Below are positions 2,780 to 58,186 of a stretch of 64,000 nt of DNA, piece after piece. The DNA lies in the IMG/VR virus record IMGVR_UViG_3300037400_004417; one strand, written 5' to 3'. The translations under genes and the position numbers were made by a program. The DNA is from a virus. Taxonomy: Duplodnaviria; Heunggongvirae; Uroviricota; Caudoviricetes. Positions within the stretch are counted from its first letter, which is position 1; every line of letters begins with the position of its first letter. Under the pieces are notes generated by a model. That model did not search any database and was not told where the DNA came from. It was given only the letters and a program-made list of their open reading frames with translations.

Positions 2780-3230
2780 TTAAGTATCCAAGAAAAATTA
2801 CGAATAATCATAAATCTTCTAAACTTGATTTTGTTCGATCTTTTAACTCTGCACGCTTAGCATTGTTCCAACGATCGACCGTGCCCGTTAAATCCTTATA
2901 TACCCCTACTTTCGTAGTACTTTAACGCTATTAATATAGCGGGAGTAGAGTACACCATCTTCCTATATATTGAAAGGAAGTCTGCATTATACTCGTTGAA
3001 CCTTCTTCTTAATACAATTAAGAAGTTTGGCTGCTGATTGTCCATTCAATTGGGTAGCAACTTTTAGCATCTATATCCTTAGGCAAAAATATAGACTTTT
3101 ATTTCAGCATGAGTCATCTCTCAACTTGTTTCTACTTTCGTTCCGTTATAGGCATGAGAGCTTTAGGAGTTTCCAGCATGTTAGCAGATTATTCGACTCT
3201 ACGTTACCGTAGAGAAGGGCCCAAAAATCA
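2780..3230 (-). ncRNA. group I intron-like element (family A), host gene unidentified
   Basis: contains an R-like element (plus-strand ctcgttgaacc at 2993) and ggctgctgattgtcc (3029), at the same 37-nt spacing as the recA, SNF2 and gyrB family-A introns; no ORF. Confidence 0.4.
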
Positions 3231-13858: not shown

Positions 13859-14092
13859 GCACTTTTATTAATAACTTGAATTTCTTCAAGGATCGGACTA
13901 TATCTTTATGCTATTAATAGCATATCTTCCATTTGGATATATAAATCTACGAGCGTAATAGCTCTAGTCTCTGAACCGAGTATTCTTTAAGAATACGATG
14001 GCTGCTGATTGTCGGCGTCGTCAAATTCTTTTATTGACAACACTACGATTTCCAGCAATTAGGAAGATTTTACATGAGCTGTAGAAAAGTTA
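13859..14092 (-). ncRNA. group I intron, nrdD intron 3 (family A, ORF-less)
   Basis: S-like cggactatatcttt (13905) and gctgctgattgtc (13998) on plus strand; exon 3 ends GGT (U), intron ends G; joins ...FAAAMG to CRTRV. Confidence 0.6.
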
Positions 14093-14378
14093 ACCCATGG
14101 CTGCTGCAAAGGTACGATAATCTCCTTCTTTATAGTAAGGAGCATTAAATGATGAAGACGTATTAAGAAAATTAGGGAATAAACGCTTCGCACTTACTTT
14201 GCAAGCATACTGGAATAAATCATAATTAGGATCTCCTTTTTCAAGATTTATTCCTTTATGGATTTGGAATACAGATATTGGGAAAATTGCAGGCTCTCCT
14301 TTTCCCAATCCATTCCATACTGCTTCTAATAAATACTTAGATACTAATCTACCTTCCGGAGAAGTATCCATTCCGAAA
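14093..14378 (-). CDS. nrdD: NrdD exon 3
   Basis: continues the NrdD reading frame; stop at 14090 lies just inside the intron. Confidence 0.6.
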
Positions 14379-21373: not shown

Positions 21374-21816
21374 CATTAATGTTATTTAATTTCATTTATT
21401 TTATAAAAAAATAAAATTAAATTTCCTATATTTAGGACTCTGATTTTCATCAGAAGTTCAGACTATATCTTCATCCTTATAAAAAAGGAGTCGAGCATTT
21501 CGATTTAAAGGACTTTCACCTACCTGATACCAGGCCCTACTCCTATTGGCATTTCAGCCCACAATGGGATAGTCGTTGAACCTTCTCCTTACTCCACAAG
21601 TGAAGGAGCTTGGCTGCTGATCGTCGATTTTTATTTGAATTTTAGGACTATATTTTTTTATAGCTTTTATTTCACCATGATTCATTTTATTGTTTCTTTC
21701 AGTCTTTCGACAACATTCGCACTTATTATTTCTAATTATGCTGTAGTACAATAAACTTTACGATGTCCCAGCAATTAACTCGATTTTTTCCTACACATTA
21801 CTGTATAGGGAGACCC
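21374..21816 (-). ncRNA. group I intron (family A, ORF-less) in the SNF2 helicase gene
   Basis: S cagactatatctt (21460), R gatagtcgttgaacc (21573), gctgctgat (21612) on plus strand; proposed junction DEIN|IQYIKSD with exon end U and intron end G. Confidence 0.55.
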
Positions 21817-22553
21817 ATATTAATCTCATCCGCTCCAATAAAATCTAATTTCATTTTATGTAATTTAGCTCTTACTTTATCATCATTAAGAGTTTCATAA
21901 TTACATATCATTAAATCTACATTTTCGAATTGTTTATTGAATGCTTCTTCATTTCTGCATTTAGAATAAGTATCTAATATCTTAGAACGATAATCTGTAA
22001 ATTTTGATACTTCTGCATTCCATTGAGCTTTTAAAGATGCTTTAACAACTATTAATCCAGGAGGGGTTATCTTTCCTAAATTAACGGAATCAGAGAATAT
22101 ACCTAGTAAGCAGGCTGTTTTGCCAGCTCCACAACCTGCGACGATAAGACATTTTTCATTATCTGTCGCGAATTTGATTATATCCTGTTGATATTTATAA
22201 GGTTTAAGTTTTAAACTTAATCCTGCAGATTCAGAATCAATTATTTTTTGGCTAGATCCAAAAATCTTATTGACTCTATTGTTATGAGCAGTAATTCTTT
22301 TTTCTGTTCTATCCTTTTTAGCAGGAAATACTTCGTCGTTTAATTTGATTAGCTTATTTAATGCATATTCAGATATAAGCCAATCTCCTGATTCTATGTC
22401 CATACAAGATTCAGATTTTCTATCTCCAATGATATACATAAATTTATCGAAGTATTTCATAGCTTTAGATGAACTAGAAATATTTACAGCGAATTTATTA
22501 TCTTTATTCTGAAGTTTACGATAATAAAACAATTCTTTCTTGATGACCTTCAT
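21817..22553 (-). CDS. SNF2-family helicase, exon 1 (Walker A and DExx)
   Basis: AGCGAGKTA Walker A, GADEIN motif II. Confidence 0.65.
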
Positions 22554-25760: not shown

Positions 25761-27000
25761 CTTTTTTATTTATTATATATACATTGATAAAAATACATGA
25801 ACATCATAGGTAATACATTTAATAATAAAAAACATCTCAAAGGAGTGTATACCTATGACAGAAAAACAGATATGTAAACAACAACAAATGATTGCGGCAG
25901 CAAATGAGTTTATCAAAGGAGCTAAACCGCAAGAAGTAATGAAAAAATACAATATATGTTATGCTTCCATTTGGAACACAATCAAAAGATATAATCTTCC
26001 TTACAAAAAGACATGGGGAAGAGAAATATTTTTTGATATTGATTTCTTTGAAAAAATTGATACAGAAGCAAAAGCTTATTGGTTAGGATTTATTTTTGCA
26101 GATGGTTCTGTAGTCAAAACAGACAAAAACTTACAAGAATATAATCGAGTATGTGTATCAATATCAGCAAAAGACATTGCCCACCTTCAAAAACTAGAAT
26201 CAATTCTTAATTTTTCTAAACCTAATAGAATCAAAATTTATAAAAAAACTCCAAATGCTTCATTTAAAAGTGAATATGACACTTGTTATCTTCATCTAAA
26301 TTCGATAAAATTATGTTCTGATATCATAAATCATGGTTGCGTTCCACAGAAAACATATGATACTACTCATAATCCACAAAATATCCCAGATCACTTAATA
26401 TGTCATTTTATAAGAGGATATTTCGATGGAGATGGAAGTATTTCTGGAAAACTAAAATCCCCAATGTTCAGTATTACGACATCAAAAAACCATAATGAAT
26501 GGATACAGTCTTATTTAATGCGTTTTTGCAATCTAAACAAGACTAAACTAACTTTTTGTCGCAATGCTTATCAATTAGATTATGGAGGAATAAATCAAAT
26601 TGTTCGTATTTTTCATTATTTATATGATGATGCTACTATTTATCTTGAACGTAAATATAATAAATTTTACTCTTATGTTTCTAATAGAGAACAGACTATC
26701 TCTTCATCCTTATCTGAAAAAGATAAGGAGCTCGGCACTTCGGCATAGGATTTTCACCACAGCCTACGAGAATCACTTCTCTAGTCGTTACACTCTTATA
26801 ATATTGTATATTATACTAGCACGGTATTTCCAGCTATCCTTTGTTTTGCAAAGGACCTTAGGTTCTCTTACGGAGCGTATTCAATATATTAACTCCTACC
26901 GTTAGCCCTCATTTTTAATAAATAAAACAAGGACACCCTATATTATATAGGTTCACCGAGGATTAATTATTCATTGCTGAATAAAAGAGCAATATAGTTT
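25761..27000 (-). mobile_element. group I intron (family D) in the UvrD-like helicase, with an antisense LAGLIDADG HEG
   Basis: exon 2 ends ...DADQS (AGT, U) at 27001; intron ends in G at 25761; exon 3 resumes IYSFRGA; core 26790-26940 is homologous to nrdD intron 2. Confidence 0.65.
25855..26748 (+). CDS. double-motif LAGLIDADG homing endonuclease, on the strand opposite to its host intron
   Basis: YWLGFIFADGSV and FIRGYFDGDGSIS; own RBS aaaggagtg. Confidence 0.8.
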   Translation: MTEKQICKQQQMIAAANEFIKGAKPQEVMKKYNICYASIWNTIKRYNLPYKKTWGREIFFDIDFFEKIDTEAKAYWLGFIFADGSVVKTDKNLQEYNRVCVSISAKDIAHLQKLESILNFSKPNRIKIYKKTPNASFKSEYDTCYLHLNSIKLCSDIINHGCVPQKTYDTTHNPQNIPDHLICHFIRGYFDGDGSISGKLKSPMFSITTSKNHNEWIQSYLMRFCNLNKTKLTFCRNAYQLDYGGINQIVRIFHYLYDDATIYLERKYNKFYSYVSNREQTISSSLSEKDKELGTSA

Positions 27001-27645
27001 ACTCTGATCAGCGTCAAGTATCAAACATACATTCATAGACTTACCGCCTAACAATTCAATTAAATGTAAATCTTCAGGGCTGCTATCATGTGCTTCATCA
27101 CAAGTTATATAAGTATATTTATCATTAATAGCTTCTTTTACTTCTGGATAGTTATCTAATAATTCAATAGTATAATAAATCAAGCCATCAAAATCAAAAG
27201 CATTATTTGCTTTCATTCTCTGTGAATACTGTTGATAAATTCTTGCGAGTGATTCAAAATATCTTCCAGAAGCTCCTAATAAAGCCTCTGAAGGACTAAC
27301 TAGATTCATTCTCCAATGAGAAATCATCTGCGAAGCATTTTGTGGTTCTACTGCAGGAATAGTCTTCTTGCATAATTCTTTTAAAAGTTTCTTTTTATCA
27401 TCTTCATCATAAATAGAATAATTTCTTGTCCAACCGATTTTATCCGCATATAATCGAAGAAGCTTTGAGCAGAAACTATGATAAGTACCGACAGTAATGC
27501 CTTTTGATTTAGGTCCAATCTTTTTGTATACTCTTTCCTTTATCTCATTTGCAGCTTTCTTTGTAAAGGTAAACAGTAAAATATTCTTAGGAGAAATTCC
27601 ATCTTCAATCATTAAAGTAGTTCTAGCAATTAGAGTTGCAGTTTT
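27001..27645 (-). CDS. UvrD/PcrA-like helicase, exon 2 (motifs Ia-III)
   Basis: KTATLIARTTLMIEDGISPKNILLFTFTKKAANE...GTYHSFCSKLLR...DADQS. Confidence 0.75.
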
Positions 27646-46646: not shown

Positions 46647-46902
46647 CATTTATGTTCGATTAAGGTCGCTAATCTTAATCCGTTCTCCTACGAACTGCTT
46701 TATGTTTCCATAAAGATCAGACTATATCTTTTTCGATTTTTCTTGAAAGTTTCTGTTTCCATTCGCTTGAATGTACGGCTTATTGCCTAGTCGTTGAACT
46801 CTATTATATAATATCAGCTGCTGATTGTCCTTATATTATAATATAAGGGGATTCCAGCATTTAAGAAACTTTTACAACGGCATATTTTTTTTATGCGGTT
46901 TT
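46647..46902 (-). ncRNA. group I intron, gyrB intron 1 (family A, ORF-less)
   Basis: exon 1 ends ...SGLNG (GGT, U) at 46903; intron ends G at 46647; exon 2 starts VGISCVNA, restoring GLNGVGISCVNA; S cagactatatcttt (46715), R gcctagtcgttgaac (46790), gctgctgattgtcc (46817). Confidence 0.7.
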
Positions 46903-47238
46903 ACCGTTTAAACCTGAAGTATTTGTTGTGTATCCATCTTGTGATGAAAACTTGCCACCTGCATGTAAAGAGCCTATTGCAAGCTCAATTTGACGTTTAT
47001 CTTCATATCCTGGAGTTTTAGAATATCCAATAGGGATACCGCCGCCATTATCTTCTACGATAACTTCTTTATCTATGATAGCGGTGGTTATGATAGAACA
47101 TCTCCCGGCGCTCGCTTCATCTCTAGAATTATCTAAAGCCTCATTAATACAATGATCAATAGAAGGGAGATACATTCCTCTTCTCATTCTAACATTGTCT
47201 GGAAAATCTAATACGCTTATTTGTGCTTGTTCCGCCAT
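46903..47238 (-). CDS. gyrB: DNA gyrase subunit B, exon 1 (GHKL ATPase N-terminus)
   Basis: VRMRRGMYLPS...EALDNSRDEA...VEDNGGGIP...LHAGGKF. Confidence 0.8.
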
Positions 47239-54766: not shown

Positions 54767-55120
54767 CTAAACCTTAACGATCTTGAAAATATAAACATTT
54801 TCTCCATTCTGATACAGTATTGCATCATAAGCATCTATATATGAATCTGCTTTGCTATCCTCACTTAACCCTTCTTTTGGGATATAAGAATTATATTTTA
54901 AAACCATTTTGTTATAAGCATCCTCATATCTGTAAAATACCATAGTATCGATATCATAGCCATCAGTTTCGATAAGGATATATTTACTTTCTTTTTCTAG
55001 AATAATATCATACATTTTCTGCAGAGTATCATTGCTTTTCTGATTCTGCTCAAGACTTTTCTTAAAGTACTCTATAGCATAATATAGAAATTCCTTTTCT
55101 GCTCTAGTTTCAAATAACAT
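54767..55120 (-). CDS. hypothetical protein
   Basis: 117-aa ORF. Confidence 0.4.
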   Translation of the reverse strand: MLFETRAEKEFLYYAIEYFKKSLEQNQKSNDTLQKMYDIILEKESKYILIETDGYDIDTMVFYRYEDAYNKMVLKYNSYIPKEGLSEDSKADSYIDAYDAILYQNGENVYIFKIVKV

Positions 55121-55346
55121 CAGTCCACTTCCCTTATACTATCTTTGTCAGCTTCCGCTACGATAAATTTGTAAAAATATTACTACTTCTATAAATTTAT
55201 ACTTTAATACTTCTCACGAAGTATTTTCCTCGTTCATCGAATCCGATTTCGCCGAAGCTATTCTCGTTTGATATAATTCTCCGGAGGCTTAAATTCCCTA
55301 GTAGCGATAGGTACACGTTTAAGTGTTCTTCGAAAATTGAACGTTC

Positions 55347-56564
55347 TTAAACTTCATAATTCGCGAGATTTATAGCTGCGTTTAAGTCTCGATCAATAAT
55401 TAAACCGCAGTTGTCACATCTATATATTCTATCCTTTAATTTTAAGTCAACTTTCTTATGTCCACAACAAGAACAGTTTTTGCTAGATGGATAATATCTA
55501 TCGGCTTTTACCAAAGTAATTCCATATTTCTCTGTCTTGTATTCAAGTTGACGTCTAAATTCATAGAATTTTTGATTAACGATTGCTTTAGCTAAATGTT
55601 TATTTTTCATCATTCCTAAAACGTTTAAATCTTCAATTACAATTCTAGCTGGCTTGGTTTTCACCAGTTCTGCCGTAATTTGATGTATATGATTATTTCT
55701 TATATCAGTTAATCTTTTGTAAATCAACTTGATTTTTCTATTTTGACGTGTAATATTTTTGCATTCTCTTAGAGGTTTTTTATAAACAGGTTTATATCCG
55801 CCAGACTTTTTATCTTCTTTTTGGATATATTCATAATGATCTGTATTTTTTAGGCGTTTACGATTCAATTTACGTTGTTCTCTTTTAAGTTTCTTTTCTA
55901 AACGCTTAACCTCTTTAGACTTATTAATATTCTTATAAAATTTTTGGGTTTTAGAATATTTAGAATACGTTACAGCTAATTCTTTCAAACCTAAATCTAT
56001 TCCTATAGATTCTTCAGTAAGCTCAACTGGTTCGAGTTCTTGGTCGATACAAAAACTTAAATACCAATGTTTCCCATCATAAGAAATCCTGGGATTAGAA
56101 TAATGTTGGTTTTCTCCTAATCTCGGAAGCACCTTCGCTGTTTTTACATAGCCTATTTTTTCTCCATGAAATCCATTCGGTTTCCAAGAAAGATATTCAT
56201 AATTTACGTAAAAACTAGGTTTCGCTTTTCTTTTTGATTTAAATTTTGGTTCATTTCTCTTCCCCTTAAAAAATGCTTTAAATGCTTTGTCAGCATCTCG
56301 AATAGCTTCTTTCGGAATATTGGAACCAACATTTTTTAACCAACTATACTCTTCTGTTTTCTTTAATTGAGTAATCTGTTTTCTAACATCTCCTGAAGAA
56401 ATGTTTTTAAGACCTGTTTTATTATTATCTAAATATTCTTTATATACACGTTTTCTTTCTCCCAAGAAATAATTCCACGCCCATCTTGCTGTTCCCGCAC
56501 TTTGCCAGAAAAGTTTTTCCTGTTCAGGTGTTGGAAGCAGTCTTATCTTCTTTCCTAGAAGCAT
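55347..56564 (-). CDS. tnpB: IS605/IS607-family TnpB (RuvC-like, Zn-finger; RNA-guided nuclease ancestor)
   Basis: GIDLGLKELAV (RuvC-I), ...IVIEDLNV..., C-terminal CSCCGHKK...CDNCG Zn finger. Confidence 0.85.
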   Translation of the reverse strand: MLLGKKIRLLPTPEQEKLFWQSAGTARWAWNYFLGERKRVYKEYLDNNKTGLKNISSGDVRKQITQLKKTEEYSWLKNVGSNIPKEAIRDADKAFKAFFKGKRNEPKFKSKRKAKPSFYVNYEYLSWKPNGFHGEKIGYVKTAKVLPRLGENQHYSNPRISYDGKHWYLSFCIDQELEPVELTEESIGIDLGLKELAVTYSKYSKTQKFYKNINKSKEVKRLEKKLKREQRKLNRKRLKNTDHYEYIQKEDKKSGGYKPVYKKPLRECKNITRQNRKIKLIYKRLTDIRNNHIHQITAELVKTKPARIVIEDLNVLGMMKNKHLAKAIVNQKFYEFRRQLEYKTEKYGITLVKADRYYPSSKNCSCCGHKKVDLKLKDRIYRCDNCGLIIDRDLNAAINLANYEV

Positions 56565-57165
56565 TAGTCTTCACCTCATCGATTAATCTCTTGGTTTTTC
56601 TTGATCTCTGTCCATACAGACGATTAGCGAATACAGTAATTATCTGAATTAAATCATCGGTTAATTCCTGTTCTTTACTTTGTTCCGTATTGTCGATAAT
56701 TTCAATTTCGACGTCATTTAATTCACAGAGATATTTAATTAAGTCAAAACCGAATCTGATTAGTCTGTCCTCATAAAGAATAACGATTTTAGAAATTTCT
56801 TTATCGTTTATTTTCTTTATAAGTTCTTGAAGGCCTTTCTTGTTGTAATTGATTCCAGAACCTATGTCAGTAATAATTTTGAACTTATATCCTTTAGCGT
56901 ACATATAAGTTTTAAGATTATTAACTTGAGTTTCTAGATCATCTTTTTGAGATGGCGTAGATACACGGCAGTAGCCTATAACTATTTTTTCTACGTTTTC
57001 AGTTTCTTTTGAAATAAACTTTTTTAACTGATCTTCGGAATAATATCTCGTACCGCCAGCTGATATATGACAAGGAATTAATTCTCCTGTCTTATGTAGT
57101 CTTCTAACAGTAGTAGGAGTTACTCCTAAAATCTTCGCGAATTTACCTATGCTAATTAATTTCAT
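56524..57165 (-). CDS. tnpA: IS607-family TnpA serine recombinase with N-terminal MerR-like HTH
   Basis: IGKFAKILGVTPTTVRRL HTH; catalytic YCRVSTPSQ; RBS aaaggtga precedes the MKLISIG start at 57165. Confidence 0.8.
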   Translation of the reverse strand: MKLISIGKFAKILGVTPTTVRRLHKTGELIPCHISAGGTRYYSEDQLKKFISKETENVEKIVIGYCRVSTPSQKDDLETQVNNLKTYMYAKGYKFKIITDIGSGINYNKKGLQELIKKINDKEISKIVILYEDRLIRFGFDLIKYLCELNDVEIEIIDNTEQSKEQELTDDLIQIITVFANRLYGQRSRKTKRLIDEVKTNASRKEDKTASNT

Positions 57166-57299
57166 AGTGTCGTCACCTTTCTGCGTTTTATTTTTATATA
57201 TTATATATATTACGCAAAAAGATGACATATTTATATAGAAAGTAAAATATTTTTATAAATTTATCTCGTTCACCTAGAAACGCAACTTTCTAGACAGTC

Positions 57300-57560
57300 T
57301 TACTGTCACCAGCAGACCTCCTTGTCTTTCGACAAGGCGCAGACTATATCTTCATCCTTCGCGATAAATCGCGGAGGAGCAGTATTTTTCTTCCGCCCTT
57401 AGCTTCCGGTTTTACTCTCCCTCAAGGAGATAGTCGTTGGAGGTCCCGCGTATCTTGATTTTTTAATCAAGACTTAGCGGTTTCCCTGCTAAACACCCAT
57501 TGTTTACGATACTTAGGACTGACGTTTCTAGACGGTCACTATTTATATTTCATCTAGTAC
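57300..57560 (-). ncRNA. orphan group I intron-like core (family-A R/S elements) with no recognisable host exons
   Basis: S gcagactatatcttcatcc (57340) and R ggagatagtcgttggagg (57430) at family-A spacing; unusually GC-rich; lies between the IS607 and a small upstream gene. Confidence 0.3.
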
Positions 57561-57943
57561 TGATCAGCTTTTGTTTCACCTTATATCATCTACACTGTTT
57601 TTTCTGCTTTCGCGCAATTTACGTCTACTGTTTCCAGTTCCGCTTTAGCCGTGTAGCTTTAGGGGTTAAAAGCAATTAACTCTGAGTTCGCACCGATTAC
57701 TCGATACGAAGGGTCTTCTGTTTCAGTTATAATATTTATATATTAATTTAAAAAACTATAAATATTTGTTAACTGTTTCTTTCCCAGCTATTCACGACAT
57801 AATCCTGATCATATACATCATCGGTGATATAAATGCCATCATCATCCTGTGCTATCTTTAACGCTTCTTCTTTAGAATTAGCTTCTATATCTAAGTAACC
57901 ATATATAGAAAACTGTACGCCCACTTTGTATGTAGCCACGATC

Positions 57944-58186
57944 TTATGCCTTCCCCTCTTTCATGTCGTTGTATAGCTTAAGAATTTCCATATCTTCTTC
58001 TATTTCGTAAGATCCATCTATATATTCTGGGTCATCTCCCAAAGGGAGTACATCAATATGCTCCTTGCAATATGCCAATGCTTCTTCTAAGCTATTGGCT
58101 TGTACAAGCAAACGGTCATATACTTGCCAAGTAATAGGAATCTTGTATTCCTTATTAGCATTTTCGTTAGCTGTTATGCATCTCAT
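57944..58186 (-). CDS. hypothetical protein
   Basis: 80-aa ORF. Confidence 0.35.
   Translation of the reverse strand: MRCITANENANKEYKIPITWQVYDRLLVQANSLEEALAYCKEHIDVLPLGDDPEYIDGSYEIEEDMEILKLYNDMKEGKA

Follow-up and report, generated by a model that had tools for sequence, protein, structure and literature searches.

A group I ribozyme beside an IS607 transposase in an uncultivated phage is very probably part of an apparently complete group B IStron

Introduction

IStrons are assigned, as a clade, to group I intron subgroup IA2 (Tourasse et al. 2014, PMC4227781). Group A elements (CdISt1 and the CdiIStrons; IS200/IS605, with a tyrosine TnpA) fuse an IA2-type group I intron to an IS that carries TnpB, and they are recognised by insertion after TTGAT-type pentanucleotides, a TCAG end, a short balanced IR stem and a Y1 transposase, while group B IStrons have a long (15–34 bp), >80% AU IR stem that joins the two ends, their 3' IR being preceded by a 3' DR (PMC4227781). 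The c-st element named CbISt3, of subgroup IA2, carries ORF A and ORF B and belongs to IS607 (Tourasse et al. 2014, PMC4227781).

For CboIStron, from plasmid p1 of C. botulinum BKT015925, excision, RNA-guided cleavage and self-splicing have been reconstituted (Zedaveinyte et al., bioRxiv 10.1101/2023.11.20.567912). That study determined experimentally that TGGG is both the TnpA target and the TnpB TAM, that mutation of the TAM abolishes splicing and that TnpA needs a left end of roughly 40 bp; the omega-RNA scaffold ends in ...UCGG, and the 3' half of the omega-RNA pseudoknot overlaps the 3' splice site and represses splicing (bioRxiv 10.1101/2023.11.20.567912).

Here we analyse a 64,000-nucleotide stretch of an uncultivated phage genome (IMG/VR record IMGVR_UViG_3300037400_004417; hereafter the window). 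A first-pass annotation made from the letters alone had recorded at 57230-57780 an orphan group I-like core lying between an IS607 and the upstream gene. We find that this block is very probably, on the minus strand, the ribozyme part of a group B IS607-family IStron that runs from 57782 to 55155 and is inserted in sense orientation after TGGG in a 63-codon phage gene.

Results

Boundaries and coding content of the element

The main parts of the element are as follows.

55155 to 57782, minus strand: apparently complete IS607-family (group B) IStron of 2628 bp, from its collinearity with CboIStron, CbISt3 and SrISt1 and from gapless alignment to empty sites after its removal in silico
57783 to 57786, minus strand: TGGG, the IS607 target with its core GG, also the TnpB TAM and, as the end of the 5' exon, the pairing partner of the ribozyme CCC guide (P1), from homologues and the CboIStron experiments
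57200 to 57228, minus strand: putative sigma-70-like promoter ATGTCA-17-TATAAT for tnpA-tnpB-omegaRNA, by consensus match only (10/12)
56524 to 57165, minus strand: tnpA, IS607 serine recombinase with a MerR-type HTH and a Resolvase domain (Pfam Resolvase 8e-21, MerR 2.5e-10)
55347 to 56564, minus strand: tnpB, RNA-guided nuclease (Pfam HTH_OrfB_IS605, OrfB_IS605 and Cas12f1-like_TNB)

In blastn searches the 550-nt block was 71% identical to the sequence directly upstream of the IS607 OrfA/OrfB in Clostridium phage c-st, and 92% of the length of the whole element aligned collinearly, at 66% identity, with CboIStron, CbISt3 (the prophage-plasmid of phage c-st) and SrISt1 (Selenomonas pSRC1). 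First comes an IA2-type group I ribozyme, then the serine recombinase gene tnpA, then tnpB and last an omega-RNA (RAGATH-18). The boundaries were observed directly: in four-way alignments, similarity begins directly after TGGG (57786-57783) and stops directly after ...GTAGCGG (55161-55155), the flanks beyond being unrelated, and some 30 further homologues from genomes and viral contigs have identical left and right limits. Based on these limits, and since TGGG is the known CboIStron target and TAM, the element was placed at 57782 to 55155; because GG is present at both junctions, its boundaries are uncertain by at most 2 nt. GGG (mostly TGGG) directly precedes the conserved left end in all full-length homologous elements, and every right end compared finishes in ...CGG, after which the sequences diverge. 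Insertion after a GG-ending site (TGGG), a 3' end of ...CGG and the absence of a target-site duplication are features of group B. Among the homologous elements the ribozyme block is always fused to tnpA/tnpB or to the matching right end, with common boundaries. The association with IS607 noted in the first-pass annotation therefore stands, but the core lies inside the IS, with conservation running from TGGG to ...GCGG (55155), and not between the IS607 and the upstream gene.

TnpA shares 71% identity with CboTnpA and has its catalytic Ser69, which aligns with S67, the residue that was mutated in the CboIStron study (bioRxiv 10.1101/2023.11.20.567912). TnpB is 59% identical to CboTnpB, with the RuvC residues D190, E311 and D393 conserved and the CxxC...CxxC zinc finger intact, its cysteines C364, C367, C383 and C386 being invariant in the alignment. 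At the position aligned with the putative promoter, c-st and BKT carry TTGACA...TATAAT. No minus-strand ORF of at least 24 aa was found in 57782-57166. Judged from its sequence, the IStron of the window looks intact, complete and autonomous.

The interrupted gene and its empty and occupied alleles

The two exons of the interrupted gene are as follows.

57783 to 57939, minus strand: exon 1 of the interrupted 63-codon phage gene, with a GTG start at 57939; P0001 and P0002 are uninterrupted 63-aa homologues
55120 to 55154, minus strand: exon 2 (AAGCUGAC...), the last 10 and 2/3 codons (.ADKDSIREVD*), with a C-terminus identical in P0002

Joining 57783 to 55154 keeps the frame (...NSWE-ADKDSIREVD) and restores a 63-aa ORF. 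In the predicted exon1-exon2 junction RNA, ...AGCUGGG is joined to AAGCUGAC..., and the predicted spliced junction sequence is ...AGCUGGGAAGCUGAC...; without splicing, the read-through product would be 56 aa long and end in ...NSWERNS*. A protein search with the spliced 63-aa product returned two 63-aa proteins, P0001 (C-terminus ...HSWKADIDNVKEVD) and P0002 (...NSWEADKDSIREVD), and one 56-aa protein, P0003, whose C-terminus ...NSWERNS is exactly that of the unspliced read-through. The contigs that encode these three proteins share the gene order of the window (175, 109, 74, 76/80, 63, 117 and 159 aa), and in them the 63-aa gene abuts the 117-aa gene. The TGA stop of exon 2 (55122-55120) overlaps the ATG of the next gene, and the same 1-nt gene overlap is present in metagenome contig L006.

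When the window flanks were joined in silico, they aligned with 0 gaps across the joint to L006 and L007 (both 90% over 1073 nt), L008 and L009, and the predicted joint was identical at 60/60 nt to L009, a metagenome scaffold with an empty site. The empty sites L006-L009 contain none of the block sequence, and the 63-aa gene directly adjoins the next gene in them. The uninterrupted homologues and the gapless alignments of the joined flanks thus establish that a protein gene is interrupted and that its exons are unambiguous. The first-pass annotation had seen no recognisable exons and no interrupted gene; the comparison that it proposed, with relatives lacking the IS607, overturns this and gives the 63-aa phage gene (exon 1, 57939-57783; exon 2, 55154-55120) as the interrupted sequence.

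Three allele types are found at the locus in metagenomes: occupied (the window and L010), empty with TGGG (L009) and empty with TGGA (L006-L008). The second occupied copy, L010:1366-1887 (Logan SRR24151135), shares the insertion site, within another host-gene allele, and has the same 56-aa truncated ORF. Its contig ends within the left end, which is 97% identical to that of the window, and the differences lie mostly in the loop of the AU-rich P1-extension hairpin. The empty allele L009:243-434 carries the TGGG TAM followed by a perfect match to the predicted guide (TGGG+AAGCTGACAAAGATAG). The empty alleles L006:5001-5192, L007 and L008 (Logan SRR316056xx) instead carry TGGA, which changes a Glu codon to Lys, and two mismatches in the first 16 guide positions (TGGA+AAGCTGACATAGATAA in L006); the TGGA allele may be a target-escape allele.

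Pfam gave no match for the interrupted 63-aa gene or for its upstream 80-aa neighbour (57944-58186, minus strand). The 63-aa gene (57783-57939, minus strand) and this neighbour share an ...ANSxEEAL... motif and may be paralogues. A tblastn search of the spliced protein against phages found nothing meaningful, viral contigs gave no related locus for the downstream 117-aa protein, and megablast of the window against 50,697 phage records found no close relative of the host genome. The contigs closest to the window come from metagenome assemblies and keep its gene order (L006, 20 kb). The nearest relatives of the ribozyme come from anaerobic Bacillota (Selenomonas, Clostridium, Acetobacterium and Proteocatella), which hints at the host range.

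Structure and covariation of the ribozyme

The S and R elements that the first-pass annotation placed at about 57340 and 57430 are present on the minus strand. gcagactatatcttcatcc is located at 57340-57358 and ggagatagtcgttggagg at 57426-57443; on the minus strand R is upstream of S, R reading CCUCCAACGACUAUCUCC (J6/7 and P7 5') and S reading GGAUGAAGAUAUAGUCUGC (J8/7 and P7 3'), and in textbook group I form the minus-strand readings are R = CCAACGACUAUCUCC and S = GAUGAAGAUAUAGUCUGC. The joint pattern CAACGACTATC-N55-85-GAAGATATAGTC was matched a single time across the window, at 57342-57439 on the minus strand, and in 0/100 shuffles. Folding gave a z of -5.8 for the minus strand versus -3.9 for the plus strand, with several GNRA loops. 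The description of the core as G+C-rich and group I-like also holds, as the block reaches 0.52 G+C versus about 0.3 in its surroundings, has an Rfam match (below) and folds into helices supported by covariation.

To describe the fold, we aligned 33 near full-length homologues of 66-77% identity and obtained the structure with RNAalifold, to which P7 was added. The elements of the fold are as follows.

57724 to 57775, minus strand: AU-rich hairpin of the left end that extends P1 (CAGUUA...UAACUG); in c-st the stem is CUGUUAU/AUAACAG, which compensates for CAGUUA/UAACUG of the window
57711 to 57713, minus strand: internal guide CCC, the complement of GGG in the TAM/5' exon, invariant in 33/33 sequences
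57272 to 57709, minus strand: ribozyme body P2-P9.2, from RNAalifold and pair counts on the 33 homologues and the 49.5-bit Rfam match, comprising the helices below
57709-57688, minus strand: P2
57684-57678 with 57386-57380, minus strand: P3
57674-57671 with 57490-57487, minus strand: P4, preceded by J3/4 AAU
57667-57662 with 57498-57492, minus strand: P5
57656-57508, minus strand: large, branched P5 extension, roughly 200 nt in the alignment, from RNAalifold
57486-57441, minus strand: P6/6a/6b
57435-57431 with 57346-57342, minus strand: P7, added to the RNAalifold structure, forming a pseudoknot with P3
57430-57416, minus strand: P7.1
57409-57393, minus strand: P7.2, with 3 covarying pairs
57378-57355, minus strand: P8
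57337-57320, minus strand: P9, with a GAAA loop
57318-57296, minus strand: P9.1, with a GUGA loop (GNRA in homologues)
57295-57272, minus strand: P9.2, with a conserved GUUGCG loop and compensatory changes in 8/9 pairs

Subgroup IA2 is defined, in the Michel-Westhof nomenclature, by the extra helices P7.1 and P7.2 between the 5' strand of P7 and the 3' strand of P3. Helices are found between these strands here, at 57430-57416 and 57409-57393. The covariation is directly visible in the alignment. Standard pairs fill 98.1% of 3657 cells across the 33 homologues, versus 82.6% in shuffles and 37-43% in slid controls, and 70 of the 112 ribozyme pairs have changes on both sides. The covariation score is 0.47, versus 0.06-0.08 in slid controls, and 0/500 shuffles reach any observed measure. 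P7 is invariant in this alignment because the pattern used to collect the homologues fixed both of its strands, and it is hence uninformative on covariation. For the 5' strand of P3, the Rfam alignment gave CAGUA (about 57560), which was dropped in favour of CAGAGUU (57684-57678), since the latter covaries with the 3' strand in the 33 sequences.

The window copy has four non-standard pairs (108/112 intact) and the experimentally active CboIStron has three. Those of the window are A.A in P3 (57681 with 57383), the 5'-side A of which is also present in L010, C.A in P8, G.G at the fourth P7.2 pair and U.U in the P5 extension. The first intron nucleotide (57782) is A, as in L010 and in CbISt3 of c-st; most relatives have U and several have C, so this position is variable within the family. 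A U at +1 has been proposed to form a shifted U.G pair (Tourasse 2014, PMC4227781). The P1-extension hairpin is located in the left-end stretch, of roughly 40 bp, on which TnpA depends in CboIStron. A P10 pairing with the 3' exon, searched for by eye, gave at most a weak CAG/CUG match.

The first-pass annotation had also pointed to inverted tttctagac/ctagaaa repeats as a possible IS end or hairpin. The repeats are present and form hairpins, but mark no IS end: the pair at 57272-57295 is the single hairpin P9.2, and the copy near 57526-57534 is in a different local hairpin of the P5 extension. Within a plus-strand ORF of 59 aa (57500-57679), the conservation pattern is that of minus-strand base-pair covariation.

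The right end and its links to the left end

The following features connect the two ends.

57242 to 57265, minus strand: 5' IR (GAUAAAUUUAUAAAAAUAUUUUAC), which pairs with the right-end 3' IR in a long AU-rich IR stem
55301 to 55306, minus strand: CGCUAC, just upstream of RAGATH-18, the upstream partner of a pseudoknot-type pairing with the 3'-terminal GUAGCG (55161-55156)
55155 to 55330, minus strand: omega-RNA scaffold, with an approximate 5' limit, including the RAGATH-18 motif at 55287-55226
55162 to 55200, minus strand: 3' DR (55200-55191) and 3' IR (55183-55162); their local pairing is an omega-RNA stem-loop, and the alternative pairing of 3' IR with 5' IR is the splicing-competent fold
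55155 to 55161, minus strand: GUAGCGG, with which both the intron and the omega-RNA scaffold end; the terminal (omega) G and the 3' splice site are predicted at G55155

The duplex of 5' IR and 3' IR has a predicted energy (RNAduplex) of -23.7 kcal/mol, versus -10.8 +/- 2.8 for shuffles, and equivalent stems made of other sequences are present in 10 other elements, so that 11/11 elements checked have one. The window element therefore has both the IR stem and the 3' DR described for group B IStrons. RAGATH-18 was detected with 66.4 bits and an E of 5e-11 (55287-55226, minus strand) and occupies the same position in L001, L004 and L005; as in group B, the omega-RNA is at the right end and overlaps the 3' splice site. 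The long-range pairing is kept by compensatory changes, being CGCUAC/GUAGCG in the window, CGAUAC/GUAUCG in c-st and BKT, CGUUAC/GUAACG in L051 and GCUAU/AUAGC in L070, and it is the counterpart of PK-1/PK-2 of the CboIStron omega-RNA. From this compensated pairing, together with the alternative pairing of the 3' IR, an "intron versus guide RNA" switch can be read in the window sequence. The first ~16-20 nt of exon 2 would also be the omega-RNA guide.

Detection by Rfam

The covariance-model search for group I introns proposed in the first-pass annotation gave RF00028 Intron_gpI at 57320-57600 (minus strand) with 49.5 bits and an E of 1.3e-11 in a narrow scan of 576 nt, missing the curated gathering threshold of 50 bits by 0.5 bit. 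Rfam scans of the 64-kb window and of a 3.2-kb piece gave no group I match in the ribozyme region. The ribozyme was thus missed through the speed filters that act on long inputs and a score 0.5 bit under the gathering threshold. SrISt1 scored 49.7 bits for RF00028, and CboIStron and CbISt3 were not reported at E<=1 in a 25-kb scan. This is a general Rfam blind spot for the IStron-ribozyme clade.

Other group I signals were noted in the window. An intron at 21438-21832 (minus strand) scored 74.9 bits in a narrow scan, above threshold, and was not listed by the gathering scan of the full window; an nhmmer search with the IStron-ribozyme alignment matched 21439-21781 as well (E 4e-15). Weaker group I-like signals are at 26671-27010 (minus strand; RF00028, 27.9 bits, E 5e-5) and at 2989-3179 (minus strand; nhmmer E 8e-9). 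With 13874-14148 and 46698-46920, the count of group I introns in the window may come to five or six, every one of them on the minus strand. As standard Rfam scans miss the IStron clade and filters hide a 74.9-bit intron on long inputs, IStrons and phage introns are probably under-annotated.

Discussion

The element belongs to an already characterised type, the IS607-family group B IStron, of which it is a new copy; it is no new RNA class. It resembles CboIStron in the order of its parts (ribozyme, tnpA(S), tnpB, omega-RNA), in its TGGG target/TAM and ...CGG right end, and in having an IR stem, RAGATH-18, a putative internal promoter at the corresponding position and a pseudoknot that overlaps with the 3' splice site. 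It differs in that the DNA identity is only about 66%, the +1 nucleotide is A where CboIStron has U, and the right end is ...AGCGG (with the compensating CGCUAC) where CboIStron has ...AUCGG. Moreover, the P6b and P8 hairpins are longer, the stem-loop after RAGATH-18 is shorter, TnpB has small insertions, and both the host gene and the genome, that of an uncultivated phage, are different.

CbISt3 (ISCbt4) of phage c-st is the best full-length match in the phage collection, with 71% identity over the ribozyme, and likewise is phage-borne, carries ORF A and ORF B, has an IA2 ribozyme and starts with A at +1. However, in the TnpA of c-st (L001:4519-5118, CST133) the catalytic Ser, which the window element keeps, is replaced by Asn (YCRVNTPSQ); because of this replacement the CbISt3 copy is probably non-autonomous for transposition. 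With group A IStrons the element shares the fusion of an IA2-type group I intron to a TnpB-carrying IS, but it has none of the features proper to that group.

Twort-type IA2 phage introns share the R and S consensus and a P3-P9 core that includes P7.1 and P7.2, and shorter matches to related cores were found in IA2 introns of Staphylococcus and Enterococcus Herelleviridae phages. Unlike in these introns, the 3' splice site of the window element is 2.1 kb away, past the transposase and nuclease genes, and its mobility would depend on a serine recombinase and an RNA-guided nuclease where Twort-type introns use a homing endonuclease. The exon resumes only at 55154, and not directly after P9/P9.x or a homing endonuclease ORF. 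In Staphylococcus phage Romulus (L002:1501-3066), a related core is followed by a Pfam-confirmed TnpB-family ORF in a region annotated as 'similar to portal protein'; here a structural gene of a Herelleviridae phage, that for the portal, seems to carry an IStron-like element. An Enterococcus phage match (L003), at first taken to lie upstream of a TnpB, was dropped since Pfam shows no TnpB domains in the ORF.

A genuine IStron by descent could have a ribozyme that no longer splices efficiently in the window copy, its insertion being tolerated, and we regard this as unlikely. The insertion replaces no more than the final 11 codons of a small, accessory gene, so selection for splicing could be weak, and the downstream gene would keep its own ribosome-binding site. 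The A.A in P3, the C.A in P8, A in place of U at +1 and an Rfam score just under threshold point the same way, and natural CdiIStron and CseIStron copies vary widely in splicing efficiency (bioRxiv 10.1101/2023.11.20.567912). On the other hand, the 108/112 intact pairs are comparable to active CboIStron, and the IR stem, CCC guide, terminal G, TnpA, TnpB and omega-RNA are all intact. In addition L010, which is 97% identical in another allele background, differs mostly in a hairpin loop.

The first-pass annotation had offered a free-standing ribozyme-like RNA, to which can be added any other structured ncRNA gene merely adjoining the IS607. This is very improbable: although no annotated exon lies directly beside the 550-nt block and the full-window Rfam scan had no match, the block is joined to tnpA/tnpB or to a matching right end wherever it was found, its 5' IR pairs with the right end, and the flanks rejoin precisely only after removal of all 2628 bp. 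Its two further suggestions, what is left of a gene (host or ncRNA) into which the IS607 inserted and an intron of an unannotated ncRNA gene, are favoured by position alone and have practically no standing, given that the block is absent from the empty sites L006-L009, where the 63-aa gene abuts the next gene, that it is homologous to IStron left ends in unrelated genomic contexts, and that the 3' splice site falls at the right end of the IS, 2.1 kb downstream.

We therefore return to the group B IStron. Its mechanism is taken from the homologous CboIStron, and we infer its splicing, cleavage and transposition on that basis; the matching architecture and mechanism are described in PMC4227781 and bioRxiv 10.1101/2023.11.20.567912. 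The chief reservations about this reading are the A.A in P3 and the A at +1. The phage transcript would read through the element, and the left-end RNA would fold into the IA2-type group I core (P2-P9.2), the CCC guide pairing with the exon GGG to give P1. The stem of 5' IR (57265-57242) and 3' IR (55183-55162) would loop out tnpA and tnpB and bring ...GUAGCG-G55155 to the active site, where two transesterifications would excise all 2.6 kb, restoring ...NSWE-ADKDSIREVD* and translational coupling to the next gene. In the alternative 3' fold, RAGATH-18, the local 3' DR/3' IR hairpin and the CGCUAC/GUAGCG pairing would form the omega-RNA and conceal the 3' splice site. TnpB would bind this omega-RNA with the downstream exon as guide and cut empty TGGG+AAGCUGAC... 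sites, upon which the element would be copied back, and the serine recombinase TnpA would excise and integrate the DNA at GG.

An apparent "orphan ribozyme" thus becomes a fully annotated mobile element, and the gene model is corrected to a 63-aa gene split 2.6 kb apart. The IS607 IStrons gain a member from an uncultivated phage that appears intact and autonomous, and for which both occupied and empty alleles exist in nature. That this element is active, fully autonomous and spreading by RNA-guided homing among related uncultivated phages is a tentative proposal, which we consider less probable than its converse. The by-products of most use are the metagenomic alleles (occupied, empty and TAM-variant) and the blind spot of Rfam. 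These alleles could be a natural snapshot of TnpB-driven super-Mendelian spread and target-site escape in phage co-infection, and the occupied/empty set would be a convenient natural system for the trade-off between splicing and guide RNA described for CboIStron.
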